A stretch of DNA of 64,000 nt from Patescibacteria group bacterium (GCA_041649315.1 JBAZNJ010000001.1:69869-133868), one strand, 5' to 3'. Shown: positions 12,174-32,001, counted from the first letter of the stretch. A program made the numbers and translations. Notes: generated by a model not told the origin, from the sequence alone.

Positions 12174-12188
12174 TTTATGTGGACAAGC

Positions 12189-12817: not shown

Positions 12818-12905
12818 ATTTTTAAAATTAATAAAGCTAATTTAATTTTAGCATTTTAACCGGTTAGCGGTCAATAATCACATTTTCGGACTATTTAACG
12901 CCTGA

Positions 12906-12934: not shown

Positions 12935-12962
12935 ATGGCAAAGAACCTTAAAAATTAAGAAA

Positions 12963-13319: not shown

Positions 13320-13330
13320 AAAAATAAAAA

Positions 13331-13355
13331 AAGCGGTTTTTAAAAACCGCTTTTT
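13331..13355 (+). terminator. rho-independent terminator (bidirectional)
   Basis: gcggtt (13333-13338) pairs with aaccgc (13445-13450 would be wrong; correct span 13345-13350). An A-run precedes the hairpin and a T-run follows it. Confidence 0.6.
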
Positions 13356-13379
13356 CATTAGCTGATTTTCTGCTTAATC

Positions 13380-13538
13380 CTATTGTTTCATGGCAATATC
13401 AAAAACTACTAAAAAAAATACGGCGGCCACCAAAAAACCGGCGATAAATCCAGATAAAGACGAAGCGTTTATTACCCCGATTTTCCATTTATAATTCTTC
13501 TTTTCGTTGGACACGAACTCTTCTCCAATCTTTGACAT
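13380..13538 (-). CDS. 52-aa tail-anchored small membrane protein (paralog 2)
   Basis: MSKIGEEFVSNEKKNYKWKIGVINASSLSGFIAGFLVAAVFFLVVFDIAMKQ. It has the same length and architecture as the ORF at 12659-12817. Confidence 0.6.
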   Translation of the reverse strand: MSKIGEEFVSNEKKNYKWKIGVINASSLSGFIAGFLVAAVFFLVVFDIAMKQ

Positions 13539-13668
13539 AGATTTTAATTAATTTTATTAAGTACTTACATTTTAACATTTTTATGATTTTTAGGCAAATA
13601 AATAGCTCTTATATAATGCTCATCTTTTTAATACACAAAAACCAGGTGAACCCTGGTTTCTTTACATG

Positions 13669-13739
13669 CACGGGATGAGGGAATCGAACCCCCGCCAACG
13701 GTTTTGGAGACCGTCGTACTACCACTATACGAATCCCGC
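13669..13739 (-). tRNA. tRNA-Trp (anticodon CCA)
   Basis: The reverse complement reads GCGGGAT TC GTAT..., ACGGT-CTCCAAA-ACCGT, GGGGGTTCGATTCCCTC and ATCCCGT-G. Terminator hairpins flank it on both sides. Confidence 0.85.
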
Positions 13740-13794
13740 AAAAATACTCCGAATCGGAGTATTAATGTTAAAAAATAATCCGCTGTTTTAAAAT

Positions 13795-14988
13795 TTACTT
13801 CCCGATTTTTTTTCTTAAATCCTTTCTTTCCTCAAACTCTTCTATATCTTCCTTAATTTCTTTTAATTCTTTCTTTGCTTCTTTCCATTCTTTCGCGCTC
13901 TCTTTTTTCTTATTATCACAATCGGGCATTTCCAAAGTATCGCAAAATTCTAACTCATAAAGATGAAAAACCGTAACCGCCAAAGCGACAATGAGCGGCC
14001 CTAAAATTACCCCCCAGAAGCCGAAAAGCATTATTCCGCCTAAGATAGAGAAAAGCACAAAAATCGGATTAACCTCGGCTCGATCTTTAATCATATAAGC
14101 GCGGATGATGTTATCAGTTGTTCCGATAATCAGGAAGCCCCAAAGTAGAATAAAAATCCCCTGCCAAACATTTCCGGCTAAAAGATAATAGAGGCCGACC
14201 GGGAAATAAAAAATCATTGAACCGACATAAGGAATAAGAGAGAGTAAGGCGATTATAATTCCGGCTAAGAGCGCCGGAAAACCGACAATTGCGAAACCAA
14301 GCGCCCCGACCAGGCCTTGGGCGGCGGCGGCCACAAAAGTTGAAATAAAAATCGTATAACTCACCGAGCGAAATTTCCGGAACAATTCATTGTCATACTG
14401 GTTCGGCAAAGGCGAAAGATACATCAGGCGTTCTAATATTTTAGGCCCATCAACAAAGAAAAAGAACATGGTTAAAATTATAAATACTAAAGAAATTATA
14501 AAATTCGTTGTTCCTTTAACAAAAATCGTTGCCCCGGAAATCAACCAATTGCTTGATTTTTGTAAAACGCTCAAAGCTGTTTCCTTAAAAGCGTCATTAT
14601 TAAAATCATACTTACCAAGGTTCAGATGCCGCAAAGGACCATCAGCAAAAAAATCCTTTTGGAAAAAATCATTAACACTATTATTATTAAAAAATTCCAC
14701 GGCTGAATTATAAGCGGTAATTGATTTACTTCCGCCGTAAATTAATAAACGGGTAAGCGGTACGATAATCAGAGCCACTAATAATAAACACATCAAAATC
14801 GCCGCCAAATTACGGCGGCCTCTTAAAAATTTAGTGAACCAGGTAAACGGCGTATAAAAGACCGAGACCAGAAGAGCCGCGATCAGAATCTCCACCAAGA
14901 AAGGTTTTAACAATAAGTAAGAACCGGCAATCACCAGGAGCACGAGAATAAGCAAGAACGGTTTAGTTAAACTTTTTGGCTTAGGCAT
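13795..14988 (-). CDS. AI-2E family transporter (PerM/UPF0118)
   Basis: Eight-TM-like profile. It contains IPYVGSMIFYFPVGLYYLLAGNVWQGIFILLWGFLIIGTTDNIIRAYMI, typical of the family, and has a charged C-terminal tail. Confidence 0.75.
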   Translation of the reverse strand: MPKPKSLTKPFLLILVLLVIAGSYLLLKPFLVEILIAALLVSVFYTPFTWFTKFLRGRRNLAAILMCLLLVALIIVPLTRLLIYGGSKSITAYNSAVEFFNNNSVNDFFQKDFFADGPLRHLNLGKYDFNNDAFKETALSVLQKSSNWLISGATIFVKGTTNFIISLVFIILTMFFFFVDGPKILERLMYLSPLPNQYDNELFRKFRSVSYTIFISTFVAAAAQGLVGALGFAIVGFPALLAGIIIALLSLIPYVGSMIFYFPVGLYYLLAGNVWQGIFILLWGFLIIGTTDNIIRAYMIKDRAEVNPIFVLFSILGGIMLFGFWGVILGPLIVALAVTVFHLYELEFCDTLEMPDCDNKKKESAKEWKEAKKELKEIKEDIEEFEERKDLRKKIGK

Positions 14989-15080
14989 AAATTTATAGCC
15001 GTCCGGACGGACCGGCGTTAAAGGGGCTTATCTGAAAACTTTTTAAATATTAAACGACCGCCCCTTAAATAGCTTAAAGT

Positions 15081-15236
15081 TTATTTAATTTCCTTATGAA
15101 GTGTGTGTTTTTTACATTTCCGGCAATATTTCTTCATTTCCAAACGATCTTTAAGAAGTTTTTTATTCTTGCGTGAATGGTAGTTAGTCGTCTTGCAAAC
15201 CGTGCATTCCAGCTTAATCATGTTGTCTTGTGACAT
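15081..15236 (-). CDS. rpmG: 50S ribosomal protein L33
   Basis: Hand translation gives [51 protein letters not shown], with the CxxC...CxxC L33 pattern. At 51 aa it is absent from the ORF track. Confidence 0.9.
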
Positions 15237-16659: not shown

Positions 16660-17046
16660 CTAACCTTTCTGTAAAGTATTAATCAAGAGACTCGTGGCCG
16701 CATAAGCCATAAAAATCACCGCCAAGCCGATGGCCGACCAGATAATAATATCCTTCCCTTTCTTAACTTTCTCCTGGTTGCCCGAAGAAAGCATCCAGGT
16801 GAGGCCGCCATAGACGAACATTAAAAGCGCCAAAGAACCGACCACGCCGAGAATAGAGTTAATCACCCGGCCAATCAAAACTTGCGGCGAATCAACCGTC
16901 GCACCGAGGGGGTTGCAAAGAGTTAAGGATCCGGGGCCGCAATTGGTGTTGGTATTTGCGTCGGACGCGGTTTTTTCGCTTTGCGCGCCAACCGCACTAG
17001 CCAGTAAAATTCCTAAAAAAACAAAAATAATTAGATATTTTTTCAT
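16660..17046 (-). CDS. TrbC/VirB2-like pilin-family small membrane protein
   Basis: Signal peptide MKKYLIIFVFLGILLASAVGAQS, a Cys pair in the mature N-terminus, and two TM helices separated by SSGNQEKVKKGKD. This architecture is common in CPR T4SS-pilin-like paralogs. Confidence 0.5.
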   Translation of the reverse strand: MKKYLIIFVFLGILLASAVGAQSEKTASDANTNTNCGPGSLTLCNPLGATVDSPQVLIGRVINSILGVVGSLALLMFVYGGLTWMLSSGNQEKVKKGKDIIIWSAIGLAVIFMAYAATSLLINTLQKG

Positions 17047-19147: not shown

Positions 19148-19381
19148 GATAAAACCTCCTATTATTTTAGTTATTAATTATTTTTTGTTAAAGAGCAATT
19201 TTTGCCAAGGCATCCATTACTCATGATATTCCGACTATTATATCACTTTTAAAGATTTTTGTCAATTAAAAAAAATTAAATTAGCTAAAATTAGATAAAA
19301 ATCATAAAAACTATTGAAAAAATTAAAAATAAAGATTAAAATAATAAGATTTTTGAACTTTAATAATTTGGAGAATTAATC

Positions 19382-20380
19382 ATGGAAAAAAACAAAAAAA
19401 TTACTAGATGGTTTTACTTAATCATTTTATTCTGCTTGATAATAACGACAGCTATTATCTTCTTAGTATTTAAATTCCCGTGGATCTTTGTTGCCTCTCC
19501 GATCATTTTTATACTTGTCGTTATAGCGACCAAAAATATTGGCCGAATCATCGTGCTTGAGAACGAGGAGTGCTTAGTGAAAATTTTTGGCATTTATATT
19601 GGTCATCCCTTGAGGCCGGGCAAATATTTCTTATTCCCCTACTTCGGTATTGTTGCGTATCATAAGATTAAAATGGATCAACAAAAAATAACCATTAAAT
19701 TTAAAGTCAAATTTTATGATTGTACAGCAAATTTATCGGCTGATTTATATTTCGCAGTGGAAAACTCCGCGAAGTTTTACTACGAATCTGGCGCAACAAA
19801 TTTAATAAGACAACAGAGTGAAAATTTGGTAGATGTATTTTCTCGTTATTTTTTCTGGGGGATTTACTTAAAGTTGGCGGCAAAAATGGCGCCAATTTAT
19901 TCATTGGAATTCCTAACAACTGCAAAATATTCCACCGTCATCTCTCCCTATGCCAAATTAATGGTCAATTACGACCACGGAAAAACATTTCCTCAAAATT
20001 ATCGACAACTTAGGGAAATAATAACCGACCTGCCGGCGGAGAAAGATCTTCATCATCTCTATAAAAGTAGCTTTTTCTATTATACCCTAAAAAATATCGG
20101 TGTCCGTCCGCTTAAAATAAAAATCTACGGATTTGAAGAAGCAATAAAACAACAGGAGCAAGAGATAGAACAGGAGAAACAGCGAGAAGAAAGAAAAAAA
20201 CGGGAAGCCTACAAGCAAGAAAAAATAGCGGAAGCTACAGCTAGTAGCCAAGACATTTGCGAAAATTGTCTCACAATTAACCCTATACGTTGTAAGTATT
20301 GTAAGCGATGCCTTAAGTGCTATGGAAACTATAGTGGAGAATGTGATGATTGTTATTTTGACAGTTCTGATGATGATTAA
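19382..20380 (+). CDS. SPFH/band-7-like membrane protein with coiled coil and C-terminal Cys-rich zinc-ribbon-like tail
   Basis: Two N-terminal TM helices, then an SPFH-like IIVLENEECLVKIFGIYIGHPLRPGKYFLFPYFGIVAYHKI. The coiled coil is QQEQEIEQEKQREERKKREAYKQEK. The tail is CENC..CKYCKRCLKC..CDDC. Confidence 0.5.
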   Translation: MEKNKKITRWFYLIILFCLIITTAIIFLVFKFPWIFVASPIIFILVVIATKNIGRIIVLENEECLVKIFGIYIGHPLRPGKYFLFPYFGIVAYHKIKMDQQKITIKFKVKFYDCTANLSADLYFAVENSAKFYYESGATNLIRQQSENLVDVFSRYFFWGIYLKLAAKMAPIYSLEFLTTAKYSTVISPYAKLMVNYDHGKTFPQNYRQLREIITDLPAEKDLHHLYKSSFFYYTLKNIGVRPLKIKIYGFEEAIKQQEQEIEQEKQREERKKREAYKQEKIAEATASSQDICENCLTINPIRCKYCKRCLKCYGNYSGECDDCYFDSSDDD

Positions 20381-20471
20381 AAATGATAGTTAATATAGGC
20401 TGGGAATCTAAACCCCAGCTTTTTTATTATTCACAAAAACAAAAAACAACCCCATTAGGGGTCGTCTTTCT

Positions 20472-20494
20472 CTGAGCCGTTGACCGGGATTGAA
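20472..20494. repeat. att copy A: displaced 3' end of tRNA-Thr(GGU)
   Basis: ctgagccgttgaccgggattgaa is identical to 31114-31136. A terminator hairpin lies immediately to its left (20440-20471). Confidence 0.85.
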
Positions 20495-20666
20495 GCACCG
20501 GACGGAAAATTAAGAAATGAAATAAAATTAGCAAGGATTAACTAAGATCAGTATAAATCCAGTTTCTCATCCTTCATCAATCTTAGACTACTTTACATAA
20601 ATTCCTCATCTCTTGGACACAATATGGCCAGGGCTATATAGGGACGAAGCGAACTAACGCGCTCTG

Positions 20667-20768
20667 TTGACTTTTTTTATATATATGCTATATTATACAC
20701 ATACCTGCCCGAGGTTAATTCGGGATAACTCTCCACAAAAACCTGACTCTGTCAGGTTTTTGTTTTTT
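20667..20768 (+). ncRNA. candidate small RNA (promoter + two hairpins + terminator), antisense to the 3' end of the NYN gene
   Basis: TTGACT (20667-20672), a 16-18 nt spacer, then TATATT/TATTAT (20689-20696). A hairpin cccgag/ttcggg follows. The terminator stem is acctgac/gtcaggt (20741-20757) followed by TTTTTGTTTTTT. Confidence 0.25.
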
Positions 20769-21420
20769 CTATCTTTGCTATATACTTCTTTATGTTCTGA
20801 GCGTTAACAACTAAATTCGCAGATTCTCTTAATTTGGTAGTAATATATCCTCCTTTTATAATAATTACCTTCTTACCCTTTTTTCGTAAAAAATTGTTTA
20901 AATAAACAAAATCCGCATCCCCGGAAAATATACAAAATGTATCATAATGATCCAACATTTTTATAGCATCGACTGAAATTTCCACGTCAAAATTACATTT
21001 TCTAATTTCTACATAATTTTGACCATCGCCATCAGTTAAAACATATTTTAAAATTTCCGCTTCATTTAGTTTGATATAGTGTTTAATTTTTTGTAAATCT
21101 TTTGTCACCACATTTCTTTTTCCAAATATTTTTCTCAGCACATAAGTAAAACTTAGAGACCCTGTGCTTTTATGATCTTCTCCATAATATACTCTAGCCC
21201 GTTCGCTAAAAAGATTGACGAATGTTTTTAACTTCTGAAGATCTATCATTATTTTTTCATCATCGGCAATTAACTTATTATTCCAATCCTGATCATCATT
21301 TTCAAACCACTTATTTACATTAGAAAAATCTATAAAAGAAAAAATTCTTCCATGTTCTGATGTAATTTCCAGTTCTCCGCAAACGAATTGTTTTTTTAAT
21401 TCTGGTAAATCCATAATCAA
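20752..21420 (-). CDS. NYN-domain (LabA/DUF88-like, PIN-fold) protein
   Basis: FSFIDFSNV near the N-terminus and DVEISVDAIKMLDHYDTFCIFSGDADFVYLNNFLRKKGKKVIII match the NYN/LabA acidic-residue pattern. Confidence 0.6.
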   Translation of the reverse strand: MIMDLPELKKQFVCGELEITSEHGRIFSFIDFSNVNKWFENDDQDWNNKLIADDEKIMIDLQKLKTFVNLFSERARVYYGEDHKSTGSLSFTYVLRKIFGKRNVVTKDLQKIKHYIKLNEAEILKYVLTDGDGQNYVEIRKCNFDVEISVDAIKMLDHYDTFCIFSGDADFVYLNNFLRKKGKKVIIIKGGYITTKLRESANLVVNAQNIKKYIAKIEKTKT

Positions 21421-21488
21421 ATTATATCATCTTGATTTTAATAATCAAAATACCAAAAAAACAACCCCCTAAGGGGTCGTCTTTCTCG

Positions 21489-21512
21489 GAGCCGTTGACC
21501 GGGATTGAACCG
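21489..21512. repeat. att copy B: displaced 3' end of tRNA-Thr(GGU)
   Basis: gagccgttgaccgggattgaaccg is identical to 31116-31139. A terminator hairpin lies to its left (21455-21488) and is homologous to the one beside copy A. Confidence 0.85.
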
Positions 21513-21702
21513 ATGCCGGCCAATTTTAGGAAAGTAAATAAATAAAAGGAAAAATTGATTTCAACCGATGAACAAAGGATTTCTCTGTTTCTCAATCATT
21601 AACAAACTTAGACTACTTCACATAAATTCTTCACCTCTTGGACACAATATGGCCACAATGTGGCCAGGACTATATAGGGGGAGGTGAAAAAGTTAAATAG
21701 AA

Positions 21703-21897
21703 CTACTTACTTTCGTTATCAACTTGTTCTTTTAATTTTCTTATGCTGGCGCTACTCTCATTAAATTTCTCGATTACCTCCTGCGCTACTCTCTGCGGTG
21801 TTCCCTGCGATGCATGATCGTCACAATGTTTGCCGTTATCTCTGACGACAGCAGGCGATATGTTACTAATTAACTGTGAAAATAAAGAAGACATCAT
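21703..21897 (-). CDS. 64-aa hypothetical protein (last gene of island operon)
   Basis: The ORF starts 15 nt after the protease-like gene ends. No recognisable motif. Confidence 0.4.
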   Translation of the reverse strand: MMSSLFSQLISNISPAVVRDNGKHCDDHASQGTPQRVAQEVIEKFNESSASIRKLKEQVDNESK

Positions 21898-21912
21898 ATA
21901 TTTCTATTATTT

Positions 21913-22902
21913 CTATAAAAATTTAATTACTTTTCTTTTTACGTTGCCTATATTGGCTTTAAAATGATCCCATAGTTCTATCGGTAAGCCAGCACTTTCG
22001 GCGTTATCAACCTTAAAAAACCAATCTCTCAATTCTTCTCTTCGAATAGCAAATCCGTGATCTGGATATTCCCAAACAAGTTTTTTAATCACCATATCAG
22101 CTATTTTTTCTCTTAGACTATCCTTCTTAACATATTTTAGCATGTTCTTTGATAATAACTCCTTGCCATACATTTGGGCGATGGATAAAAGCCTTAAAGC
22201 TGTATTATATATTTTTACATCTTGTTTTGCTATCATCGGCGATATTAAATTAGCTACAAATTTTCCGGCAATATCCAAACATTTTTCAGATGAAATCCTA
22301 TATTCTTCTATCAATTGCGTTGCTAATATTTTTTGTTTATCTATCGCCGTGCTTATAATTGTATCTAAAGATTTAGCTATATCTAACGCTGATATTGTAA
22401 CCATCTCATCGTCAGGATGTTTCATCGGCTTATCGAGTGGCCCCAACTCAGATATACAAGACATTATAAGTTTATCCGCAGCCAAACACATCATTGTCCC
22501 AGAACTTTTAGCTTCCTGCGCAATAGCAATTTCAATCGTTTCATATTTTTCTCTAAGCATATCCATAATTTTAACAGCCGAATATACATTGCCGCCCGGG
22601 GTATCTAAATAAATCAAAAGCGATTTTTTAAATTCCGTTTTATTTTTTAAAATCTCGTATATTTTTATTTCATCATCTTGATTTATAGAATAGTGAAAAT
22701 TTCCGATCTCGTCTTTAGAATATAACATCAATAAAACATCTTTATCCTTTTTGAAATCATCTAATGTCACCTGACCTATGCCTTCGCTGGGCAGATCATC
22801 TTTCTTCTGAGCCGGCGCTGGGGCAACTCTTAAAGCCACTCCCGGAGATATATCTACTGGCTTTGTATCTGTTGGTTTCGCGGATGTTATGTTTTCCCCC
22901 AT
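21913..22902 (-). CDS. SDH-family / ClpP-fold (S49-like) serine protease-like protein
   Basis: LIYLDTPGGNVYSAVKIMDML ... IAIAQEAKSSGTMMCLAADKLIMSCISELGPLDKPM matches the pattern xTPGG ... AxSxGTxxxLxADxIxM ... LGPxDP of Clp-fold serine proteinases. The N-terminal ~45 aa are low-complexity. Confidence 0.6.
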   Translation of the reverse strand: MGENITSAKPTDTKPVDISPGVALRVAPAPAQKKDDLPSEGIGQVTLDDFKKDKDVLLMLYSKDEIGNFHYSINQDDEIKIYEILKNKTEFKKSLLIYLDTPGGNVYSAVKIMDMLREKYETIEIAIAQEAKSSGTMMCLAADKLIMSCISELGPLDKPMKHPDDEMVTISALDIAKSLDTIISTAIDKQKILATQLIEEYRISSEKCLDIAGKFVANLISPMIAKQDVKIYNTALRLLSIAQMYGKELLSKNMLKYVKKDSLREKIADMVIKKLVWEYPDHGFAIRREELRDWFFKVDNAESAGLPIELWDHFKANIGNVKRKVIKFL

Positions 22903-23007
22903 ATTTCAAATCATTAGTATCTTTGATGATTTAAATCTACCATATTTTCCAATCAATATCAAGGATAATTGTAAAAAGGTAAAACTATACAAAATATTTA
23001 ATTTCTC

Positions 23008-23376
23008 TTATTTTATATGGATATTTCTCGGTCTAATTTTCCTTAACATACAACCAGCCAACCAATAAGAGAATAAGGATATAAACTCAAACCAAAAATT
23101 AAAAATTATTTCCCAACCATAAACCATAATCAAAATGGCAACAATGCTGAAATAAATCAAATTATAAATCAAACTCCCAATTCCTCTCTCCCAAAATTTT
23201 ATAACAAAAAATAATAAAACAAAAAAGATTACATATATTTTTGATGTTAGCCAGGTATCTGCTACCGCTTGCCCAAAAGCTGATGCGGCGATTTTTTCAG
23301 CCTCGCTAATCGTTTTATGAATAAAATCCCAACTACTAAATGTATTAAGTGCTTGAGCTAAATCTTTATCCGGCAT
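23008..23376 (-). CDS. small 3-TM membrane protein, hypothetical
   Basis: A 122-aa ORF. Its start lies 1 nt after the upstream gene's stop. It has three hydrophobic helices. Confidence 0.5.
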   Translation of the reverse strand: MPDKDLAQALNTFSSWDFIHKTISEAEKIAASAFGQAVADTWLTSKIYVIFFVLLFFVIKFWERGIGSLIYNLIYFSIVAILIMVYGWEIIFNFWFEFISLFSYWLAGCMLRKIRPRNIHIK

Positions 23377-23377
23377 A

Positions 23378-24412
23378 TCATTTTAAGCGCGTTACCACGC
23401 GAGAAAATTTATAATCTGATACAGTTTTAGTATCTTTAACAAAATTAAGATGCGTCTTAATTACATAATTTAGGTTATCCATACATTTAACTGCGGCCTT
23501 CTTATATTTATCCATTTCAGCCAAATCATTTTTTGGGTGAACCAACTCATTCGCTAAATCCGCAATGTCAGTCAATTTTTTTTCTGCTGTTTTATTTATG
23601 AGTAGTTTTTTAAATAAATTTTTATTTCGACAAGATTTTACCAAGGCATAAATTCCTTTTGACATTGGCTTGCCGCCTGCCCCACTTTTTCCTTCTTTTT
23701 TATAAATTTCAAATACGCTTCCTTTATTGATAAGTATATTTACCAGCGCTTGCTCCGCGGCTATCCGGCACATAACAATAGACGGGTAAAAATCACCCAA
23801 GATATAGAATTCTTGAGCTTTTATAAATAAATCAAAATAATTACCATCATAAACCATAACTCCGCGATATCTTTGAGTTGTTGTAATGTATCTTGACCAC
23901 ATAGCTGGCAACTCTTTTTTTAAACCATTTTGCCATTGTTGCATAAATTCGCCTTTTTCCTGCCTACGCATTTTTAATGGTAAATACCCACCGCCCCTAA
24001 CTTTAAAAGTCCTGCGGACTTGAAATTTCTCATCAAGATCTTTGCGTTCTTTGAAATTAGTCTTTAAAAGCCACCAGCTGCTATTAAATCTGACAACTAA
24101 AATAGTCGCATTGCGCTTACTAATTTTCTTACTTTTCCAGCCAATATCCTTTATATCTTTTATGTCCAAGCTAATTTTCTTTCCCGTGTCATTTGGGTTT
24201 GATTTTTTTTCTTTGAACTCAATCATGATTTCGAAATCATCATCAAGATAAATATTCGAACTATTATTATCTAATATTTCTATGAGCGCCGATGAAAAAA
24301 GAGATGTATTTCTTTTCTTAAGTTCTGGGTCTATAAATTCCTCTTTTACTTTATTTATAAATTGACCAAAACTTTCGCTGTTTACTACATTTTGGTTAGG
24401 TATTATTAACAT
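23378..24412 (-). CDS. hypothetical protein with DUF4145/HEPN-like C-terminal helical domain
   Basis: The C-terminal region reads FYPSIVMCRIAAEQALVNIL ... LTDIADLANELVHPKN ... AAVKCMDNLNYVIK. This resembles the DUF4145 pattern (helix with R..lE, later l..lGN...H). N and H are present, but R and G are replaced by A. This is a by-eye call. Confidence 0.35.
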   Translation of the reverse strand: MLIIPNQNVVNSESFGQFINKVKEEFIDPELKKRNTSLFSSALIEILDNNSSNIYLDDDFEIMIEFKEKKSNPNDTGKKISLDIKDIKDIGWKSKKISKRNATILVVRFNSSWWLLKTNFKERKDLDEKFQVRRTFKVRGGGYLPLKMRRQEKGEFMQQWQNGLKKELPAMWSRYITTTQRYRGVMVYDGNYFDLFIKAQEFYILGDFYPSIVMCRIAAEQALVNILINKGSVFEIYKKEGKSGAGGKPMSKGIYALVKSCRNKNLFKKLLINKTAEKKLTDIADLANELVHPKNDLAEMDKYKKAAVKCMDNLNYVIKTHLNFVKDTKTVSDYKFSRVVTRLK

Positions 24413-24422
24413 AAATTGTAAT

Positions 24423-26186
24423 TTATTTTCGCTTTAATTTTTCCCTCCAAAAATCATTATATACTTTATCTAAAAATTTATTGCTGGGTTGATTACCATT
24501 AATTCTTGTCACATAGGACACAAACCCTTGGCTCTTGTCATTTTTAATATTATTAAAAATATCTTCAATTTCAATTTTATCTTTGACAACCTCGTATACT
24601 TCCAACTCATCGATATTTAAAAGATGATAATCAAAATCTTTTAAGCCGATTAAATCTGTATTCTTCTCTTCCATTTTTGACAACAAATTTGCAACTTTTT
24701 CTTTATAAATTGCGGACGAAGCGAGCGGTATTTCTAAAAAGACAATCACCGGAATAAAAGTTTTCCCTCTTAAATTTTTAAGTTCTTCATATTGATCAAT
24801 ATCTTTTATAGTCTTAAACATTTCTACCACAGAAGCAGCAATTTTTTTTAATTCATTATTAACTATTGCTTCAAGATCACCCGTCTGCCTACTTAACAAC
24901 GCGAACTGGTATGCCTTGGCTTCAAATAAATAACATTTATTTTCTTTTATAATATACCAATCTGTGAACATATTGCTCCCCCTTGAGTAAGAAAATTCCG
25001 AATTAACATTTGCTAAACCATAAATATCTTTTAATATTAATCCAACATATTGCTCAAAAATTTTTCCAAAATATGTCCGATAATGTAAATGCATTTTTTT
25101 ATCTCTGCCCGTTGTTTCAAAATAATTATGAAACCACCAAAAAATTCCACTATAAATTTTAAACATGTAGGTAGACACGTTGGGCATTATATAGGCATCC
25201 TGTGAATTTATATTTTCCTTTACTAACGGAAAAATGAATAATGGATTAAATCTATTTTTTGTATAAACCGAGCTCAAGTCATCATTCAGTTCTTTATCTA
25301 AATCTTTAAACTTTTTATAATCTGCGGCAACAATCTCTAAAAAACTATTAACTTTTTCCTCTGTGTAAATATTTTCAAATTCTGGTATCTTTGCGGTAGC
25401 TAAATAGGAAGATGAAAATATAATACGATCTTTCACCCCAGCAAGAAAACCAAAACCAATCTGTAAATATTCCTCCATCGTAATTTTATTTTCCTTAAAA
25501 AATATGTCTGAAAGCTTTTCAAACTTATCTGGAATTATTTTACCGGCCAAATCGAAGAAGAAAACAATGTTTCTGGACATTAGACATAACTGATTAAACT
25601 GAAAACTGCTCATCTGCTCATACCACATTCTAACCATAAACGAGAGAAAATCATCATTATCAAATTTTTTCATTCCCTCATTAATCTTCACTAAATCTGG
25701 GCTGATTAATTTATTATTATAAATATTGCATAACACAAACAAGGAATATGGGTTATCTTTAAAATTATCACCACTGTCATCGCTTGCGCCAGACAATATT
25801 AGCATATTAGCTATGTAAGCTAACGAAAATTGAGAAATAAGAATATCTGTATTTTCTTCGCGATATCCAATTCTTCCCAATCCTTCAGTATTTCCTTGAA
25901 ATACATATCGAGAAATATCTCCTATTAATATTAAATTATCCCTTAAACTATACCTTTTTAAAACTGATTTAAAATCCTGTTCAGTAACTTCGCCTTCTCC
26001 TTTGACAGACAGGAGCCTGCCGATATCATCATCAATCGGATGCTTAATTCCTTTTTTATCTGTTATAGCTATTTTAGGGATTAATAATCTCCCTATACCC
26101 AAGACATCTTTATTCATACAGCATTTTTTATATTTTTTACCGCTACCACAATGGCACGGCTTATTGACCAAATTACCAATCCCCAT
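24423..26186 (-). CDS. SEC-C motif protein with PD-(D/E)xK nuclease-like C-terminal region
   Basis: The N-terminal CHCGSGKKYKKCC is the SEC-C metal-binding motif. Later, FGKIFEQYVG ... FTDWYIIKENKCYLFEAKAY fits the E ... D ... ExK restriction-endonuclease-fold pattern. Confidence 0.5.
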   Translation of the reverse strand: MGIGNLVNKPCHCGSGKKYKKCCMNKDVLGIGRLLIPKIAITDKKGIKHPIDDDIGRLLSVKGEGEVTEQDFKSVLKRYSLRDNLILIGDISRYVFQGNTEGLGRIGYREENTDILISQFSLAYIANMLILSGASDDSGDNFKDNPYSLFVLCNIYNNKLISPDLVKINEGMKKFDNDDFLSFMVRMWYEQMSSFQFNQLCLMSRNIVFFFDLAGKIIPDKFEKLSDIFFKENKITMEEYLQIGFGFLAGVKDRIIFSSSYLATAKIPEFENIYTEEKVNSFLEIVAADYKKFKDLDKELNDDLSSVYTKNRFNPLFIFPLVKENINSQDAYIMPNVSTYMFKIYSGIFWWFHNYFETTGRDKKMHLHYRTYFGKIFEQYVGLILKDIYGLANVNSEFSYSRGSNMFTDWYIIKENKCYLFEAKAYQFALLSRQTGDLEAIVNNELKKIAASVVEMFKTIKDIDQYEELKNLRGKTFIPVIVFLEIPLASSAIYKEKVANLLSKMEEKNTDLIGLKDFDYHLLNIDELEVYEVVKDKIEIEDIFNNIKNDKSQGFVSYVTRINGNQPSNKFLDKVYNDFWREKLKRK

Positions 26187-26189
26187 AGT

Positions 26190-27149
26190 TTAGATCTTAG
26201 TTTTTTCCTTATTTATAGATTTCTTTATCTCAATCATTTCCTCGAACTCCTTCTTGCCCTTTGCGTAACAATACTGAAAAGACAACCCCGGGCGGATTAA
26301 ATTAAATCGTTGCACATCATTATCTTTAATTCTCTTTCTAATTACTTTTTTACCAGATACTGGCTCCACAAGTTCTATTAAGACTTTAGGGGATAAAGGA
26401 AAATAATGCTTTCTCTCTAAGAAGGTATAACCATAAATGTTTGGAAGCTCTGGCGATAACTCTATCACTGGCGTATCAGAGGTAATAAACTCTTTTTCGT
26501 CTACCGCTATATACACCCTCCAGTTTTTATTGAATATTACATTAGCAAATCCCTCTAAGTGCTCAATAAATAAAAGTTGCTCGACATTATTAAAACTTAA
26601 ATCATAGTTACCGGTTTGCATTAATTTAACATACCAATCAATATCTTCATCATCCATATCCAACCCTTCTTTTTTCTTGAGTTCTTTGGCTATTGTTTTT
26701 ATGTGATCTTTATATCCGTCCATGGATGCTCTAAATTTTTCCGTTTCTTTATAAAAATGGGAGCTTATTCTATTTATCTTTTCTCTAAAATGTTTACTCC
26801 GTATCCATAATGAACTCATAAATAAGGATACAAAATACATTTGTCGGCTATCTAACTGCTGATTGTTTAGTATACTTTTTTCTAACTTGTTAAGCGCGGG
26901 AGCCGCTTTATCTTCAATACCCTGAAAAATATCTTCAATTTTCTGGCTGGCCTCATCTTGTTTCCCAGTATCTACTGCATAAAAAAACTTCTCGTAGCAT
27001 ACGCCGCTATAAGGGCGTGCCGGGTTTAATTTAACATTTTTTATATCAAGAACCTCTATAAAGTTCTTTTCATTAGCAAATCTTTTTAGGTAAAAACGAG
27101 GGACCCAATGCTGATCTTCCACTATTATATTTTGGTTATTGTTTGCCAT
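26190..27149 (-). CDS. DUF4238 family protein
   Basis: The N-terminal QHWVPRFYLKRFA is the hallmark H-x-V/I-P-x-F-Y-L-x-x-F start of DUF4238. Its length (319 aa) is typical of the family. Confidence 0.65.
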   Translation of the reverse strand: MANNNQNIIVEDQHWVPRFYLKRFANEKNFIEVLDIKNVKLNPARPYSGVCYEKFFYAVDTGKQDEASQKIEDIFQGIEDKAAPALNKLEKSILNNQQLDSRQMYFVSLFMSSLWIRSKHFREKINRISSHFYKETEKFRASMDGYKDHIKTIAKELKKKEGLDMDDEDIDWYVKLMQTGNYDLSFNNVEQLLFIEHLEGFANVIFNKNWRVYIAVDEKEFITSDTPVIELSPELPNIYGYTFLERKHYFPLSPKVLIELVEPVSGKKVIRKRIKDNDVQRFNLIRPGLSFQYCYAKGKKEFEEMIEIKKSINKEKTKI

Positions 27150-27393
27150 ATAACTGATAGGGTGCGCTTATTTAAGAGACTATTTTAGCTTGCCCGCTGT
27201 TAAAATTATATGCCCCTTTTTCAACCATGTCTATGTATGAAATGAAAAATATGTGCCACGTCTTTTTCACCCTAAAAAATACGATTTTCATTAAAAAATG
27301 GCTAATTTAAAATAAAAAATCAAAAAAATAACAATTTTAAAAGATCCAAAATGCTATTATTGAGTTTTATGCACCTTTATGGTAGATTATAAG

Positions 27394-27552
27394 TGCGAAA
27401 CCACAATTGAATTTTCGAAAGACGTGCTTTAAGAGCATGGTCTCTTGTATACAGGAACGGGCACTCCGACCCATACAAGAGGCAGTCTTTCGGGACACCA
27501 ATTGTGGTTTCGCAACCAGGTCGGGTGTCCGTTTTTGTTTTCGGGCACTTTT
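27394..27552 (+). ncRNA. structured RNA of unknown class (riboswitch-like leader or stand-alone ncRNA)
   Basis: Nested pairings: P1 27395-27409/27499-27513 (15 bp, perfect); P1a 27416-27423/27485-27492 (8 bp); P2 27424-27428/27434-27438; P3 27440-27450/27473-27483 (11 bp). G.U pairs occur only in the plus-strand reading. Alternative hairpins follow at 27491-27498/27525-27531 and 27525-27531/27542-27548, the latter followed by TTTT. Confidence 0.55.
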
Positions 27553-27572
27553 ACAAATTAATAAATAAAAAT

Positions 27573-27971
27573 ATGAAAAAAATTGTCTTATTCGTGACAC
27601 CACTTATCCTATTGCCGGGTTCCTGCCTGGCTGCTGGCTCAAATTCGAATGAATACAACTGGGGCTTAATAATTGGATCTATTATTGTTGGGGGCATTTT
27701 TAGTTTAGCGATCTCTATTGGACAAGATAAAAATCAAAATGCCAAAGGAAACATGTGGTATAAGGAAATACACATGCCAAAAACAGCTAAATTTATAAAA
27801 ACCACTATTGCGATATTAGGATTTTACTTGCTCTATACTTTTATAGCCAACCTGCTATTTCCTGAGCAACGAAACGAAATCAGAATTTTATTAGTCGTCT
27901 TGGCAACCGTTTTAACGATCTATGCCCACAAAAAATTCTTTAATAAAAATGGACAACAAAATAAAACTTAA
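27573..27971 (+). CDS. small membrane/secreted protein, hypothetical
   Basis: ORF 27504..27971. The likely start is ATG at 27573 (MKKIVLFVTPLILLPGSCLAAGS), a signal peptide with a possible lipobox, followed by 3 TM helices. Confidence 0.5.
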   Translation: MKKIVLFVTPLILLPGSCLAAGSNSNEYNWGLIIGSIIVGGIFSLAISIGQDKNQNAKGNMWYKEIHMPKTAKFIKTTIAILGFYLLYTFIANLLFPEQRNEIRILLVVLATVLTIYAHKKFFNKNGQQNKT

Positions 27972-28527
27972 TTACATAAAATGCCCTAACTGCCAGAATA
28001 TTCTTGATCTATCTTTTGTTAAGAGCGTTTGTCCTAATCCGCTCTGTGGCTTCAATTTCAACGATTTAGAGGCCTTATTAGATCAAGACGAGGGAAAGCT
28101 ACGTCAGGCCCTTATAAACGCTACTAAGAGCAAAGATGTCCATGGGATAAAGCTCCTTGCCACGGCCGTTAAATTTAATATGCCTGGCTACTTGACACAT
28201 TTTATTGAATGCAGTTGGGGTGCCCATTATCAAACGCTTTTTAAAGATTTCATTACTCTTTATCTTGACGATCTCAACGTCTTGAAAATGATATTGTCAT
28301 CCGACGTTATCTGTCCCGCAAAAAATAATGTGGTGACCTCGAAAAATGGATATAAAATCTTTCTCGGGTTATACCAATACCTGATGAAAGTTCATAGTCC
28401 TGATATTAGAAATTTTCTAAGGCTTGAATTTCCGGGGTTTTACAGAAAATGGTATAAGGAAATACTTGCCAAGAACCACCGACCAAAAACTACTGATAAA
28501 AACATCAACCAAACCGCGCTCATCTAA
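27949..28527 (+). CDS. hypothetical protein with N-terminal zinc-ribbon
   Basis: ORF 27922..28527. The likely start is MDNKIKLNYIKCPNCQNILDLSFVKSVCPNPLCGF, which carries CxxC...CxxxxC. Confidence 0.45.
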   Translation: MDNKIKLNYIKCPNCQNILDLSFVKSVCPNPLCGFNFNDLEALLDQDEGKLRQALINATKSKDVHGIKLLATAVKFNMPGYLTHFIECSWGAHYQTLFKDFITLYLDDLNVLKMILSSDVICPAKNNVVTSKNGYKIFLGLYQYLMKVHSPDIRNFLRLEFPGFYRKWYKEILAKNHRPKTTDKNINQTALI

Positions 28528-28551
28528 ACTCCCCGAAGCGGGGAGTTTTTT
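28528..28551 (+). terminator. rho-independent terminator
   Basis: The 8-bp stem actccccg (28528-28535) pairs with cggggagt (28539-28546), followed by TTTTT. Confidence 0.7.
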
Positions 28552-28593
28552 ATTGCTAATCACGGAAAAAGTGATAAAATACATAGTAATACT

Positions 28594-29238
28594 ATGAAAA
28601 ATTCTTTCGGACAAAAAATATTAAATAATCTGCTAACTATGTTAGCGGATGAAAAATTCAGAGAAGAAGTCATATCTATAAGAAAAAAGTTTCAAATACC
28701 AGAAACCGGCATTGATGATAGTTATAAAGAACGACATGGCCGTCATGCGTTTCTGAGTTGTGCCGAAAATTTAGAAAAACTTAGGGTTAAATATAAATTA
28801 AATGAGCATTACGGCATCTTTCTAATGTATATTGTAATATTCGGCAAGAGGCCAAATAAAAGCATTCTTAACGATACATCACCATTCGAACTTATGCATT
28901 ATCAAGAAAAAAGCGGCCTAAATTGCGCCGCTATTAAAATATACCAGGAAACTACGATCAAAGATATACAAAATAATTGGGATATCATAAAGAAATTTAG
29001 CGAAGAAACATACGAACGCGAAGTAAAAGCCAAACAAAGGCCCATTAACAATGCTGAGAGGGACTTTTATATTAGAAAGTTAAAAAACTGGGGTTTTAAA
29101 AATCGACAGACATCACAGATTATAAATAATATTTTTCCACAAGAGGGAGTAATCTCATATACAGATATTCCAAAAATAACAGAAAGAAACAAAAGAAAGG
29201 CGGCTAAGCTATTACAAAATACCAATAAAACCAAGTAA
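28594..29238 (+). CDS. hypothetical protein
   Basis: A 214-aa ORF with no motif I recognise and a basic C-terminus. Confidence 0.45.
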   Translation: MKNSFGQKILNNLLTMLADEKFREEVISIRKKFQIPETGIDDSYKERHGRHAFLSCAENLEKLRVKYKLNEHYGIFLMYIVIFGKRPNKSILNDTSPFELMHYQEKSGLNCAAIKIYQETTIKDIQNNWDIIKKFSEETYEREVKAKQRPINNAERDFYIRKLKNWGFKNRQTSQIINNIFPQEGVISYTDIPKITERNKRKAAKLLQNTNKTK

Positions 29239-29261
29239 AATTTGCTCTTCTATATCGATAC

Positions 29262-29291
29262 CGCTGGGAGGATGTCCGCCCAGCGTTTTTT
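29262..29291 (+). terminator. rho-independent terminator
   Basis: The stem cgctggg (29262-29268) pairs with cccagcg (29279-29285), followed by TTTTTT. Confidence 0.7.
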
Positions 29292-29509
29292 ATTTATATA
29301 ATGGAGTTATCGTGCCCCAGCCCTACATCCGGGCAGCCGGAGCGATCCAAAATAATTTGCGGCGGAAGGATGTTTAAAAACGGATCCTCACACCTCAAGC
29401 AGATAGTTATCAACCTAACAAGGCAAAAGGCAAGAATAATAAATGATAACTGCTTAGGGGGAGAAATGGCTTAACCCATGGGGGTTTGGTAATACAATAG
29501 AATAACAAT

Positions 29510-29671
29510 ATGAGAAATCTACATTATAAATTATTTAGTTATCGACTAAACCCAAAAACTGTAAAACAACTCAAAAAAATAAAAAAAGAAAAAGGATTAA
29601 CCTATAATCTACTATTTGTTGATCTTTTAAAAAATTATAAAAAACACAAACCCAAAAAACCAAAATCTTAA
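29510..29671 (+). CDS. 53-aa basic protein, possibly ribbon-helix-helix-type regulator
   Basis: Hand translation gives MRNLHYKLFSYRLNPKTVKQLKKIKKEKGLTYNLLFVDLLKNYKKHKPKKPKS. It is below the ORF-track cutoff and sits upstream of xis-int. Confidence 0.35.
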   Translation: MRNLHYKLFSYRLNPKTVKQLKKIKKEKGLTYNLLFVDLLKNYKKHKPKKPKS

Positions 29672-29748
29672 AAAATAACCCGGTTTATGATAGGATTATA
29701 TAGTCCAATAGCCAACCGGCTATCCCTATATAGTCCTTTAAAAAATAA

Positions 29749-29949
29749 ATGTTTGGCTCAGCGTCCGACAAGTTAATAACCCCTGACGAGTTAGCAGATT
29801 TCCTAAGGATCTCCCGGGCTTCGGTCTACCGCTTGGTGGACGGCCGGAAACTTTCTTTTTGCAAAGTGGGAGGATCGTTAAGGTTTAGAGCGGAAGATAT
29901 AGATAGATACTTAAAAGCGGTCTGCGTTGAGCCGATAAATAAATTATGA
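29749..29949 (+). CDS. xis: excisionase-family helix-turn-helix DNA-binding protein
   Basis: LITPDELADFLRISRASVYRLVDGRKLSFCKVGGSLRFRAEDIDRYL is the classic excisionase/MerR-like HTH. Its stop overlaps the integrase start (ATGA). Confidence 0.8.
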   Translation: MFGSASDKLITPDELADFLRISRASVYRLVDGRKLSFCKVGGSLRFRAEDIDRYLKAVCVEPINKL

Positions 29950-31064
29950 GCGTAAATAAGCGCGGCAAAAAATATTGGATCGATTTCCGCTTTAACCGGC
30001 AAAGATATCGGCATCCCAGCCCGGACAATAGTTTGGCCGGAGCTAAGGCGTATGAGGCCTTGCTGAGGCAAAAACTGGCTCGTGGCGAGCCAATAACCGA
30101 AGAAAAAGCCAAAATAACGACCTTCGCGGAATTCAGCCGAAAATGGTTTGATGTCTATGTTAAAAATAACAATAAACCATCCGAGATCGCCAATAAGGAA
30201 AGCGCCTTGCGGATCCACCTAATTCCCTTCTTTGATAAAAAAGAAATAGATAAAATATCCAACCTGGATATTGAAAACTACAAGGCTAAAGAAATTTCTA
30301 CCGGATTATCAAATAAAAGCATCAACAATATACTGATAATCCTAAATAAATGCTTAGGCACGGCCGAGGAATGGGGAGAAATAGACAAAAAACCGAAAGT
30401 GAAACTCCTAAAAGTCCAGCCGCAAAAATTTGACTTCCTAACCGGCGAAGAGGCCGAGGCGCTTCTGAAAAATTCTGATGGCTGGCTACACGAGATGATC
30501 TTGATTGCTCTAAAGACCGGCCTAAGGTTTGGCGAGCTGATCGCTCTGGACTGGGACGACCTTGATTTCACTGCGAAAAATATAATTGTCCGACGCGGCG
30601 TAGCTAATGGCATATTAGGAAGCACTAAAAGCAATAAAATAAGGACGATCCCAATGGCCGGCGAAATTATCGAACTAATGATGAAAAGATACCAATCAAA
30701 AGGATTAGTCTTTCCGCCCAGCCATGACAGCTACCTAACTCACAATCTTTGTCATAAGGAGCTTAAAAGAGCTTGCCGGCGCGCCGGGCTAAGAGAAATC
30801 GGCTGGCATACTCTAAGGCATAGCTTCGCCTCCCATTTAGCGCAGAACGGCGTCTCTCTGAAAGTTATTCAAGAACTGCTCGGCCATTCCAACATCGTTA
30901 CTACAATGCGCTACTCCCACTTAACCGCCGCTTCCCTGATCGAGGCCATTAAAACTCTGGATGGGAGTAAAAATGGCCGAACCATAGAACTTGGCCACAA
31001 TATGGCCACAATCCCGACTGAACAGGTAAAAATTCCTGCTATTTCCAGCATCAATTTATCATAA
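29946..31064 (+). CDS. int: tyrosine recombinase / phage-type integrase
   Basis: The C-terminal catalytic region reads GLRFGELIALDWDDL ... HTLRHSFASHLAQNGVSLKVIQELLGHSNIVTTMRYSH, giving the R..HxxR..Y residues. It lies adjacent to the tRNA. Confidence 0.9.
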   Translation: MSVNKRGKKYWIDFRFNRQRYRHPSPDNSLAGAKAYEALLRQKLARGEPITEEKAKITTFAEFSRKWFDVYVKNNNKPSEIANKESALRIHLIPFFDKKEIDKISNLDIENYKAKEISTGLSNKSINNILIILNKCLGTAEEWGEIDKKPKVKLLKVQPQKFDFLTGEEAEALLKNSDGWLHEMILIALKTGLRFGELIALDWDDLDFTAKNIIVRRGVANGILGSTKSNKIRTIPMAGEIIELMMKRYQSKGLVFPPSHDSYLTHNLCHKELKRACRRAGLREIGWHTLRHSFASHLAQNGVSLKVIQELLGHSNIVTTMRYSHLTAASLIEAIKTLDGSKNGRTIELGHNMATIPTEQVKIPAISSINLS

Positions 31065-31116
31065 TTTTCTTTTATTTTAAACAAAAAATCGCCTATCAGA
31101 CGATTTTTCCAAACTG

Positions 31117-31189
31117 AGCCGTTGACCGGGATTGAACCGGTGACCTTCTCCTTACCATGGAGATGCTCTACCAGCTGAGCTACAACGGC
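31117..31189 (-). tRNA. tRNA-Thr (anticodon GGU), integration target
   Basis: The reverse complement reads GCCGTTG TA GCTCAGCTGGTAGAGC A TCTCC-ATGGTAA-GGAGA AGGTC ACCGGTTCAATCCCGGT CAACGGC-T. Confidence 0.9.
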
Positions 31190-32001
31190 GCAACTTCTAA
31201 ATTTTCAACCTCCTCCTCCCTTTCCCCGAGCTTCTGATTTTCCGGGTTTACTTCCCGTAATTTTTCTAAACATTCTCTCGCCAACGCTTTATCTTTTCTT
31301 ATTATACTTAAATCCAAAATTAAATCAAGATAACGGGGATTGTTCGGTTCAAAATCTAAAGCGGTCCGGATATTTTCTAAAGCCGCCTCGTCTTCCCCCG
31401 CGTCTTTTTCTACATTAGCCAAACAAAAAAGTATTTCCTGTGGCGTAATTTCTTCAACTTCTTCTCCGTCTTTTATTTTCTGGCGGGCCAATTTCAAGGA
31501 ATATTCATAGGTCTGGCGCGCTTCCGACCATTTCTTCCGGGTCTCATAAAGCTCGCCGAGCGCAAAAAAAGCCGGTAAATTCTTTTGATCCAAGCTTATC
31601 GCTTCCACTAATTTTTCTTCGGCCTGGTTAAAATCTTCTTTTTCCATTAGCTCGGCGGCGGCAGCCAAAAGCTCCTCAATTTTTTCCCGGCGCTTCGGCC
31701 AGGCCCAGCCACTAGATAATTTATGCGCGGTCTTGGCTTTCTTAAGGCGCCCATACCAAATCCCAAGCAAATTACTCAAGCGCCGACGCAAAAATAACCA
31801 AACGCGGCCAAAAAAACCGCTCCAACGCGCCACATCGCGTTCTACCCGCTGTTTAATAATCTGCTCTTTAAATTTAGCTTCTTTCTCGCCGGGAATATTG
31901 TTAACATCCAAAATCGCCAGAATCGGAAATTTCCGGATTATAATAAACAGGGCAACGACCAAGGCCAGCCCGATAAAAATAAGAGAAATTATAGTCGACA
32001 T
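31180..32001 (-). CDS. N-terminally anchored TPR-repeat protein
   Basis: One TM helix followed by TPR-like helices (AFFALGELYETRKKWSEARQTYEYSLKLA; ALENIRTALDFEPNNPRYL). The last 10 nt overlap the 5' end of tRNA-Thr. Confidence 0.6.
   Translation of the reverse strand: MSTIISLIFIGLALVVALFIIIRKFPILAILDVNNIPGEKEAKFKEQIIKQRVERDVARWSGFFGRVWLFLRRRLSNLLGIWYGRLKKAKTAHKLSSGWAWPKRREKIEELLAAAAELMEKEDFNQAEEKLVEAISLDQKNLPAFFALGELYETRKKWSEARQTYEYSLKLARQKIKDGEEVEEITPQEILFCLANVEKDAGEDEAALENIRTALDFEPNNPRYLDLILDLSIIRKDKALARECLEKLREVNPENQKLGEREEEVENLEVAPL

Follow-up and report, generated by a model that had tools for sequence, protein, structure and literature searches.

What lies behind the tRNA-Thr(GGU) gene in a 64-kb stretch of DNA from a Patescibacteria group bacterium (GCA_041649315.1), and how did it get there? 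The stretch, which at its full length is called the window, carries the intact tRNA gene and two orphan copies of its 3' end, and a first-pass annotation made from the sequence alone had taken these for the footprint of tandem integrative elements. We compared the window with fetched loci of related genomes (L002-L114). The region 20474-31139 is probably a tandem array of two integrative-element segments, A and B, set in the 3' end of the tRNA-Thr(GGU) gene by a Patescibacteria-wide family of tyrosine integrases. Tandem elements at one attB are supported by two attR-type junctions with homologous arms and a shared motif, by an attL-type junction with genes for an integrase (int) and an excisionase (xis), and by the loci L002, L084 and L093 and the close integrases of other genomes.

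31116-31189, minus strand: intact tRNA-Thr(GGU) gene (ARAGORN; Rfam tRNA, 68.6 bits)
31116-31139, minus strand: proximal attachment (att) core, the last 24 nt of the tRNA, supplied by element B under the model
21489-21512, plus strand: orphan copy J2, 24/24, at the junction of elements A and B
20474-20494, plus strand: orphan copy J1, 21 nt of tRNA identity, at the outer edge of the array
20474-21488: putative element A, 1.0 kb, att-flanked and integrase-less
21489-31139: putative element B, 9.65 kb, with int, xis, both arms and cargo of low G+C content (GC)

Three copies of the tRNA end

Exact matches to the 24-mer GAGCCGTTGACCGGGATTGAACCG lie at 31116-31139 and 21489-21512, a third copy with 2 mismatches lies at 20474-20497, and none of 100 shuffles gave even one extra match. 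Three copies of the tRNA 3' end were thus borne out, and the repeats, whose possible lack of identity to the tRNA had been raised as an objection, matched it over 24 of 24 nt (J2) and over 21 nt (J1). For J1 the earlier count had been 23 of 23 nt (20472-20494). The 21 nt of tRNA identity stand, whereas the other two (CT, 20472-20473) match the CT at 31114-31115 in the flank downstream of the intact tRNA. No further copy of the core was present to the left of J1, and an Rfam scan of 20300-31300 gave no family besides tRNA. The intact tRNA was 100% identical to that of L090 over 76 nt.

The window comes from a 377-kb contig of a metagenome-assembled genome (MAG), so that repeats arising by chance or by an assembly mis-join have to be considered. 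This is scarcely credible in view of the shuffling result. Moreover, the repeats are shorter than typical assembly k-mers, the J2 junction recurs in an independent contig from another sample (L099, in JGI 3300037067; 99.6% identical over 1672 nt), and the architecture recurs in other assemblies.

Homologous arms and arm repeats at the junctions

Each orphan copy is followed by an arm of about 170 nt, and a repeat found in both arms reappears near the intact tRNA.

21513-21680, plus strand: P' arm of element B; GGACACAAT/GGCCACAAT repeats, 21639-21665; distance to core, 127 nt
20495-20666, plus strand: P' arm of element A; a single GGACACAAT site, 20614-20629; distance to core, 120 nt
30992-31012, plus strand: candidate arm-type sites in the P arm of B, two GGCCACAAT with an 11-bp period in the 3' end of int; distance to core, 124 nt

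The arms to the right of J1 and J2 were homologous to each other (69 nt at 87% and 108 nt at 74% identity). The P' arm of B was also ~80% identical to the distal arm of L084 and 90% identical to the distal junction of L088, which comes from another metagenome. The sequence GGMCACAAT occurred at only five sites in the window, all of them in att arms and on the plus strand. They start at 20615, at 21640 and 21651 (11-bp period) and at 30993 and 31004 (equal period and orientation), and lie 120-127 nt from the nearest core. We presume that these repeats are arm-type binding sites for the integrase (Int) that flank the core in the layout of an attP. On the P side of element A the motif was not found. 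The P-arm repeats are kept at the equivalent place in L081, L084, L085, L086 and L087. They sit within the int open reading frame (ORF) and encode LGHNMAT, and the presumed binding sites of Int thus appear to constrain, as DNA, the sequence of its own C-terminal tail.

The integrase and excisionase genes

29946-31064, plus strand: tyrosine integrase, 372 aa (PF00589, E = 7e-38; PF14659), convergent with the tRNA
29749-29949, plus strand: HTH_17 excisionase, 66 aa (PF12728, E = 1.4e-14; PHROG excisionase families)

Both genes of the module had been recognized in the first-pass annotation, and the family matches confirmed them. Its third member, a 53-aa ORF (29510-29671) labelled as ribbon-helix-helix-like, could not be verified as such, since Pfam and NCBIfam gave no match and PHROG only a family of unknown function. 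The int gene ends 52 nt from the tRNA, at the tRNA-proximal edge of B, and the stop codon of xis overlaps the start of int. Alignment of Int to XerA (4A8E) revealed that the catalytic R, H-x-x-R, H and Y motifs are kept (GLR, HTLRHSF, GHS and MRY). Comparison with Xer, P2 and HP1 structures gave E ~1e-17. Identity to INPHARED phage integrases was 27-31% at best, and a scan of viral contigs with the Int protein gave no match. The integrase is an ordinary phage-type tyrosine recombinase. Exact-protein look-ups with Int and with the TPR protein of the window gave no match, although Int is itself in the protein collection searched for homologues.

The family comprised 2145 homologues at E <= 1e-10; of the source names listed, Patescibacteria was the most frequent. 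Among the homologues with usable context, the three closest (L081, L084 and L087; 83%, 79% and 75% identical as a set) are all located at tRNA-Thr next to TPR and TIM genes, each with xis and with unrelated cargo. Excisionase copies 57-68% identical to that of the window lie upstream of int in L081, L083, L084 and L087.

Empty and occupied sites in related genomes

By its flanking genes, the window belongs to a Patescibacteria genome near Falkowbacteria. Relatives share the order TIM, TPR, tRNA-Thr(GGU), and then, across a variable gap, a T4SS-pilin gene, tRNA-Tyr and Fpg. The gap between tRNA-Thr and tRNA-Tyr measures 561 nt in L002, 68 nt in L007, 2.4 kb in L006 and 14.6 kb in the window. 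The T4SS_pilin gene of the window (16660-17046) is outside the array and syntenic with that of the relatives. In L002 the interval holds only tRNA-Thr, a terminator, the pilin gene and tRNA-Tyr. The comparison with strains lacking the elements, proposed in the first-pass annotation, thus finds an empty site in this genus-level relative. Element B is absent from the orthologous locus of L002, L006, L007 and L090, all at genus-level distance.

Other loci are occupied. L084 contains a single 6.8-kb element between the tRNA and one orphan copy, with a P' arm and motif as in B and with conflict genes of the CTD12, MC8 and DUF2326 types as cargo. The element in L087 is the closest to B and has backbone genes in common with it. 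L093 is itself a tandem, in which tRNA-Thr is followed by a 1.16-kb integrase-less segment, an orphan copy, a terminator, an NYN gene, more cargo and a truncated P' arm.

A further member of the family stands in L081 (10001-11107 and upstream; also L082 and L083). A 79% identical integrase at tRNA-Thr is accompanied there by Zot, a rolling-circle Rep (REP_ORF2-G2P), an HTH_17 excisionase and a LexA-like repressor. On this gene content, the L081/L083 element is an inovirus-like prophage in the Patescibacteria MAG GCA_027356705.1. No distal att turned up in the 10 kb fetched for it. In L081 the tRNA-Thr(GGU) gene (11171-11605) is interrupted after GGU by ~196 nt inserted into its anticodon loop. 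The 5' half of the tRNA is found again 130 nt beyond, at 11568-11605. ARAGORN made no tRNA call on the interrupted gene, and Rfam gave no intron family.

We considered whether the low-GC DNA to the left of J1 (19290-20440) is a third, older element, and rejected this, as its 332-aa gene is homologous to the SPFH gene that heads a native operon in L090 (28% identity, E = 2e-17). The promoter region of the operon (19153-19267) is common to the window, L084 and L090. Since the DNA to its left is native-like, J1 is the outer boundary of the array. The SPFH-like gene (19382-20380) is inverted with respect to L090 and lies in DNA of low GC (0.31), which indicates a local rearrangement next to the array.

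Terminators behind the tRNA end

21455-21486, minus strand: T0-type terminator behind J2, 14 pairs, -21.5 kcal/mol, z = -3.9; P arm of element A
20441-20470, minus strand: T0-type terminator behind J1, 13 pairs, -19.7 kcal/mol, z = -4.3
31078-31110 (hairpin ~31083-31109), minus strand: TB-type hairpin and U-run behind the intact tRNA; P arm of element B

Folding and alignment agreed with the earlier description of homologous terminators behind both orphan copies and a different one behind the tRNA. The TB-type hairpin is the weaker (-11.3 kcal/mol, z = -2.1), and a simple terminator scan did not call it. Its homologues are located between int and tRNA in L081 and L087 and at the distal junction in L084 and L088. 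The T0-type terminator of element A is always linked to an NYN gene in relatives; L090, L093 and L100 have it in the stretch that separates NYN from the tRNA end. The first bases of the J1 terminator (AGAGAAAGAC) are similar to the bases that follow the tRNA in L002, where the site is empty (AGAGAAA...). This likeness fits the J1 terminator as the native tRNA-Thr terminator, presumably displaced by the insertions.

The two terminator families are interchanged between proximal and distal junctions when the window (31078-31110 against 20441-20470 and 21455-21486) is compared with L084 (4340-4378 and 11135-11172). By this comparison the interchange is a swapping of attP halves between hosts and elements, and it matches the attP-half mosaicism described for genomic islands (PMC9580842). 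Because the types are swapped between L084 and the window, terminator type alone cannot separate a native from an element-borne terminator. The terminator at the intact tRNA had been called island-derived; an element-borne origin is supported, but it does not follow from the type alone.

Element A and the origin of the NYN block

20752-21414, minus strand: NYN nuclease (LabA-like, PIN-fold), 220 aa from the second Met (PF01936, E = 9e-14; PADLOC NYN, E = 6e-7)

The NYN gene is the sole ORF of element A, and homologues 68-91% identical to it occur in many Patescibacteria. Its surroundings form a block (20667-21515) that consists of the tRNA end, the T0-type terminator, NYN and ~100 nt past its stop codon. 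The block was 85-87% identical in DNA to those of L090, L093 and L100, whereas neighbouring host genes were 66-76% identical. Its synonymous divergence (dS) was 0.63-0.71, against >1.7 or saturation for host genes and int. The high DNA identity and low dS relative to host genes indicate that the block moved after the hosts had diverged. No remnant of int was found in element A. The 1-kb element had been described as an older one that now lacks an integrase. The absence of the integrase stands, but the implied loss is unproven, as the blocks of L090, L093 and L100 are integrase-less too. In L084 a T0-type terminator lies next to an int. Element A may always have depended on an integrase acting in trans, and it may spread partly by recombination anchored on the invariant tRNA.

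These comparisons raise the alternative that only B integrated and that the NYN block was resident or arrived by homology-facilitated recombination on the tRNA, J1 being the relic of an older, erased element, a local duplication or the product of conversion, so that A would never have moved by site-specific recombination. In L090 the block lies directly behind an intact tRNA-Thr and its T0-type terminator, with neither an integrase nor a distal repeat. The homology to L090, L093 and L100 stops exactly at window position 20667, a sharp distal end that is identical in four different contexts. Elsewhere in Patescibacteria the block is a free cassette in type I restriction-modification (R-M) operons or between housekeeping genes. 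The terminators of J1 and J2, moreover, are unusually alike. On the other side, J1 has the full anatomy of an attR, with a core, a 170-nt homologous arm and the motif at the right distance, and the NYN element of L093, which follows an orphan copy and lacks an integrase, likewise ends in such an arm. In L100 the block lies between unrelated genes, again with no integrase, and has carried a 16-nt remnant of the tRNA end to this non-tRNA place, which suggests that the tRNA end travels with the NYN block as it would in an attP. We regard integration of B alone as a minority reading, though the one among the alternatives to be taken most seriously.

Proposed events at the locus

Under the tandem array that we favour, an element's attP would have as its core the final 21-24 nt of the tRNA, flanked by a terminator-bearing P arm on the int side and a P' arm of ~170 nt, with the arm repeats ~125 nt from the core on both sides as presumed Int binding sites. 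Recombination in the shared core would rebuild the tRNA from the element's copy and give it the element's terminator, while the original tRNA 3' end and terminator would be pushed to the far end of the array. Element B, with int, xis and both arms, appears complete for integration and excision. Its Int and Xis could excise either B alone (J2 with the tRNA junction) or A and B together (J1 with the tRNA junction), and the departure of A with B would be a cis-mobilization of the kind described for cis-mobilizable elements (CIMEs). Excision of A alone seems unlikely because its P side has no arm motif. The repeats, arms and genes, the empty and occupied sites of relatives and the tandem layout of a second genome are observed, whereas arm-site function, excision products, event order and current activity are inferred. 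Of the two successive integrations that had been proposed, the tandem elements are upheld, but which is older and which younger cannot be read from the layout, since either att site can receive a second element, and a ready-made composite can also come in as a unit.

The last of these routes is an alternative in its own right. A composite of A and B could have been excised by its outermost att sites and integrated as a unit, J2 being inherited. Co-transfer of tandems of a CIME and an integrative conjugative element (ICE) is documented (PMC5704250), the predicted composite attP, formed by the P arm of B and the P' arm of A, has motifs on both sides, and L093 holds a composite of a similar kind. 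In L093, however, the proximal segment bears no relation to B, and the NYN element measures 3.2 kb rather than 1 kb. As both segments differ from A and B, an identical composite is unseen elsewhere. B-like parts (L087 and L088) and NYN-block parts (L090 and L100), in turn, occur apart. A single composite event is held to be improbable.

Another history would make int and xis an ancient, vertically inherited dock at tRNA-Thr in which only the cargo turns over. The dS of int is saturated like that of host genes, the int region has a GC of 0.45 as opposed to 0.29-0.37 in the cargo, and the cargo is wholly different in each genome. The identities of the integrases (83 > 79 > 75%) track the TIM identities of their hosts (69, 62 and 64%) only loosely. 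Yet int is absent from the equally related hosts L090, L093, L002 and L006, in L084 and the window every int is paired with a corresponding P' arm beyond its own cargo, as the movement of whole elements would lead one to expect, and one sister element is a complete inovirus-like prophage. Such a dock is unlikely, somewhat less so than a pre-formed composite.

Several observations nevertheless weigh against the tandem array. The saturated dS and the host-like GC of int leave room for int and xis as old residents with cargo turnover, and the identity of int ranks roughly with that of the hosts. The arrangement in L090 means that A might not be an independent element. The terminators of J1 and J2 are closer to each other than either is to the terminators of other NYN blocks. 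A simple two-step model does not predict this similarity, which suggests gene conversion between the repeats or an origin of element A within this lineage. The excised circle (attP) was not found: one metagenome scan with the P'-arm pattern gave only two distal junctions, one in L088 and one in L089, which belongs to the organism of L084, and a scan of viral contigs with the att core gave no match and no attP. Nor was an empty attB found at the strain level, where the only same-strain contig, L099, has the J2 junction. Finally, B lacks recognizable transfer, replication or virion genes in Pfam, PHROG and NCBIfam.

Gene content and class of element B

27574-29671, plus strand: four backbone genes of unknown function (probable lipoprotein, 201-aa zinc-ribbon protein, 214-aa protein, 53-aa protein)
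21703-27149, minus strand: cargo block (DUF4238, 319 aa; SEC-C, 587 aa; 344-aa protein; 122-aa membrane protein; SDH/ClpP-like serine protease, 329 aa; 64-aa protein)

The extent of about 9.65 kb and the retention of xis and int that had been attributed to the second element hold, the coordinates being 21489-31139. Three backbone proteins, those of 201, 214 and 53 aa, were recovered from L087 by tblastn (67%, 40% and 63%), and the probable lipoprotein has its real start at the ATG at 27574. None of the backbone proteins matched a family in Pfam, PHROG or NCBIfam, apart from the PHROG of unknown function for the 53-aa protein. The 214-aa protein had only 5 homologues, and its AlphaFold2 model (pLDDT 82) matched no fold in the PDB.

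The GC of the cargo is 0.29-0.34, against ~0.43 in the flanks. The 587-aa SEC-C protein is weakly GapS1-like (NCBIfam E = 1e-7, far below the cut-off). From its proteins the cargo looks defence-related, and PADLOC found no known defence system in B. PHROGs, Pfam and NCBIfam revealed no virion, packaging or lysis genes in B, including capsid, terminase, tail and Zot. The nearest phage-like signal was a weak similarity of the SDH-type protease to a ClpP-like head maturation protease. No relaxase, coupling protein, type IV secretion system or oriT was found within 20474-31139. Thus B has what characterizes a tRNA-targeting island, namely a complete catalytic set in its integrase, a tRNA and direct repeats as flanks and an empty site in relatives, but neither the virion genes of a prophage nor the transfer genes of an ICE or an integrative mobilizable element (IME). 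Element A is like a CIME in having att repeats as its bounds and no integrase or transfer genes. It adjoins B, and its P' arm is homologous to that of B with a shared motif, but its P side is motif-free.

A G+C-rich branched hairpin of 120 nt (27394-27514) occupies the intergenic region between the cargo and the backbone of B. Its minimum free energy is -64.3 kcal/mol (z = -9.0), and it was also detected as inverted repeat I2. It is preceded by a promoter-like site, and its 3' half overlaps with a terminator-like hairpin. It had no Rfam match and no homologue in the fetched loci or viral contigs. The hairpin could be a small RNA or leader, or a single-stranded DNA signal such as a filamentous-phage packaging signal or an origin.

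A candidate small RNA paired with NYN

20667-20772, plus strand: candidate convergent small RNA gene, with a promoter-like TTGACT-16-TATATT (20667-20694), the hairpin CCCGAGGTTAATTCGGG (20708-20724), and a terminator (20735-20763) and U-run shared with NYN

The predicted RNA of ~65 nt consists of a 5' hairpin and the terminator (fold z = -5.3). The segment was ~100% identical in the window, L090, L093 and L100 and thus better conserved than the NYN coding sequence. In distant cassettes, whose NYN proteins are 68-77% identical, both hairpin stems are invariant while the loops, the linker and the promoter spacer vary, and every version retains the -35 and -10 hexamers. The hairpin motif was present in 24 of 25 fetched NYN loci of diverse Patescibacteria (the contig of the 25th ends early), in 0 of 90 other loci and once in the window. 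Rfam held no family for it, and scans of viral contigs with the NYN protein and with the RNA motif gave no match. Covariation analysis yielded 0 compensatory pairs; as invariant stems give no compensatory changes, the structure stays unproven.

Outside att contexts, the cassette of NYN and RNA lies between hsdM and hsdS of type I R-M operons (L094-L098 and L101-L108) or between adh_short and a TPR gene (L109-L114), starting 4-6 nt past the stop codon of the upstream gene. The anticodon nuclease PrrC is likewise embedded in a type I R-M locus. The likeness lies in the RNase-fold gene of the cassette, which sits between hsdM and hsdS; the cassette differs in its NYN/PIN-like fold and in its pairing with a conserved convergent non-coding element. 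By this analogy, its position in type I R-M loci suggests a defence or abortive-infection RNase. Our best guess is that NYN and the RNA form a putative RNase-plus-RNA module for defence or addiction. More tentatively, it is possible that they represent an undescribed two-part Patescibacteria cassette in which the ~65-nt RNA serves an RNase/RNA-antidote or abortive-infection module. Such a cassette would spread freely, as in type I R-M operons, and also as an att-flanked mini-element that parasitizes the integrase of larger tRNA-Thr elements.

Relation to known systems

The array is a real feature with an unremarkable mechanism, tandem accretion at a tRNA gene. Since tandem islands in tRNA genes are textbook biology, the finding mostly confirms that they work in the same way in the candidate phyla radiation (CPR)/Patescibacteria. 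Tandem accretion and CIMEs are known from the islands related to ICESt1 and ICESt3 of Streptococcus thermophilus and from tandems of IMEs and CIMEs (PMC5704250). As in those tandems, an integrase-bearing element here adjoins an integrase-less att-flanked unit in the 3' end of one target gene, three direct repeats are present, and either the inner element by itself or the whole composite is predicted to excise. In contrast to them, the host belongs to the CPR, conjugation and mobilization genes are lacking, the integrase-less unit is only 1 kb, its cassette of NYN and candidate RNA also circulates outside att contexts, and cis-mobilization is only predicted.

Tandem ssrA-specific genomic islands of Dehalococcoides (PMC3146451) resemble the array in their serial placement behind one small-RNA gene, short direct repeats of its 3' end, a gene-proximal integration module, units without a module, strain-specific cargo and broken synteny. 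They use the serine recombinase DsiB and a 20-bp tmRNA repeat, whereas the window has a tyrosine integrase with an HTH_17 excisionase, a 21-24-nt tRNA-Thr repeat and only two units. The presumed attP is similar to those of the lambda, P2 and HP1 type, and of tRNA-targeting genomic islands and prophages at large, in the SAM-like and catalytic domains of Int, a core formed by the tRNA 3' end so that the gene is rebuilt, motifs ~125 nt on either side and an Xis-type HTH gene upstream of int. It differs from them in that one putative cluster of arm sites lies inside the int coding sequence.

Mobile elements of CPR/Patescibacteria are little characterized, and att-flanked prophages have already been reported in them (PMC13059738). 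The present locus adds an integrase family whose specificity for tRNA-Thr(GGU) is conserved and whose putative attP, made of the core and GGMCACAAT arm repeats, is readable. Within one clade this family appears to shuttle both defence-like islands and an inovirus-like prophage. The attP layout may help to mark out islands in CPR MAGs, or be put to use in site-specific integration where genetics is lacking. The NYN-plus-RNA cassette, too, emerges as a candidate for a new module of defence or addiction.

Variable DNA elsewhere

In these reduced genomes, the interval from tRNA-Thr to tRNA-Tyr stands out as a gene-flux hot spot. In L090 an RVT_1 reverse-transcriptase gene (13986-15191) lies just beyond tRNA-Tyr and a PIF1-like helicase gene follows the NYN block, which is more variable or defence-like content in the interval. 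Within the window, other patches of low GC (0.33-0.35 versus ~0.43) were observed at 12001-14000, 54001-55000 and 60001-62000. The last of these is located between tRNA-Lys (60193-60268) and tRNA-Thr(UGU) (62096-62168).

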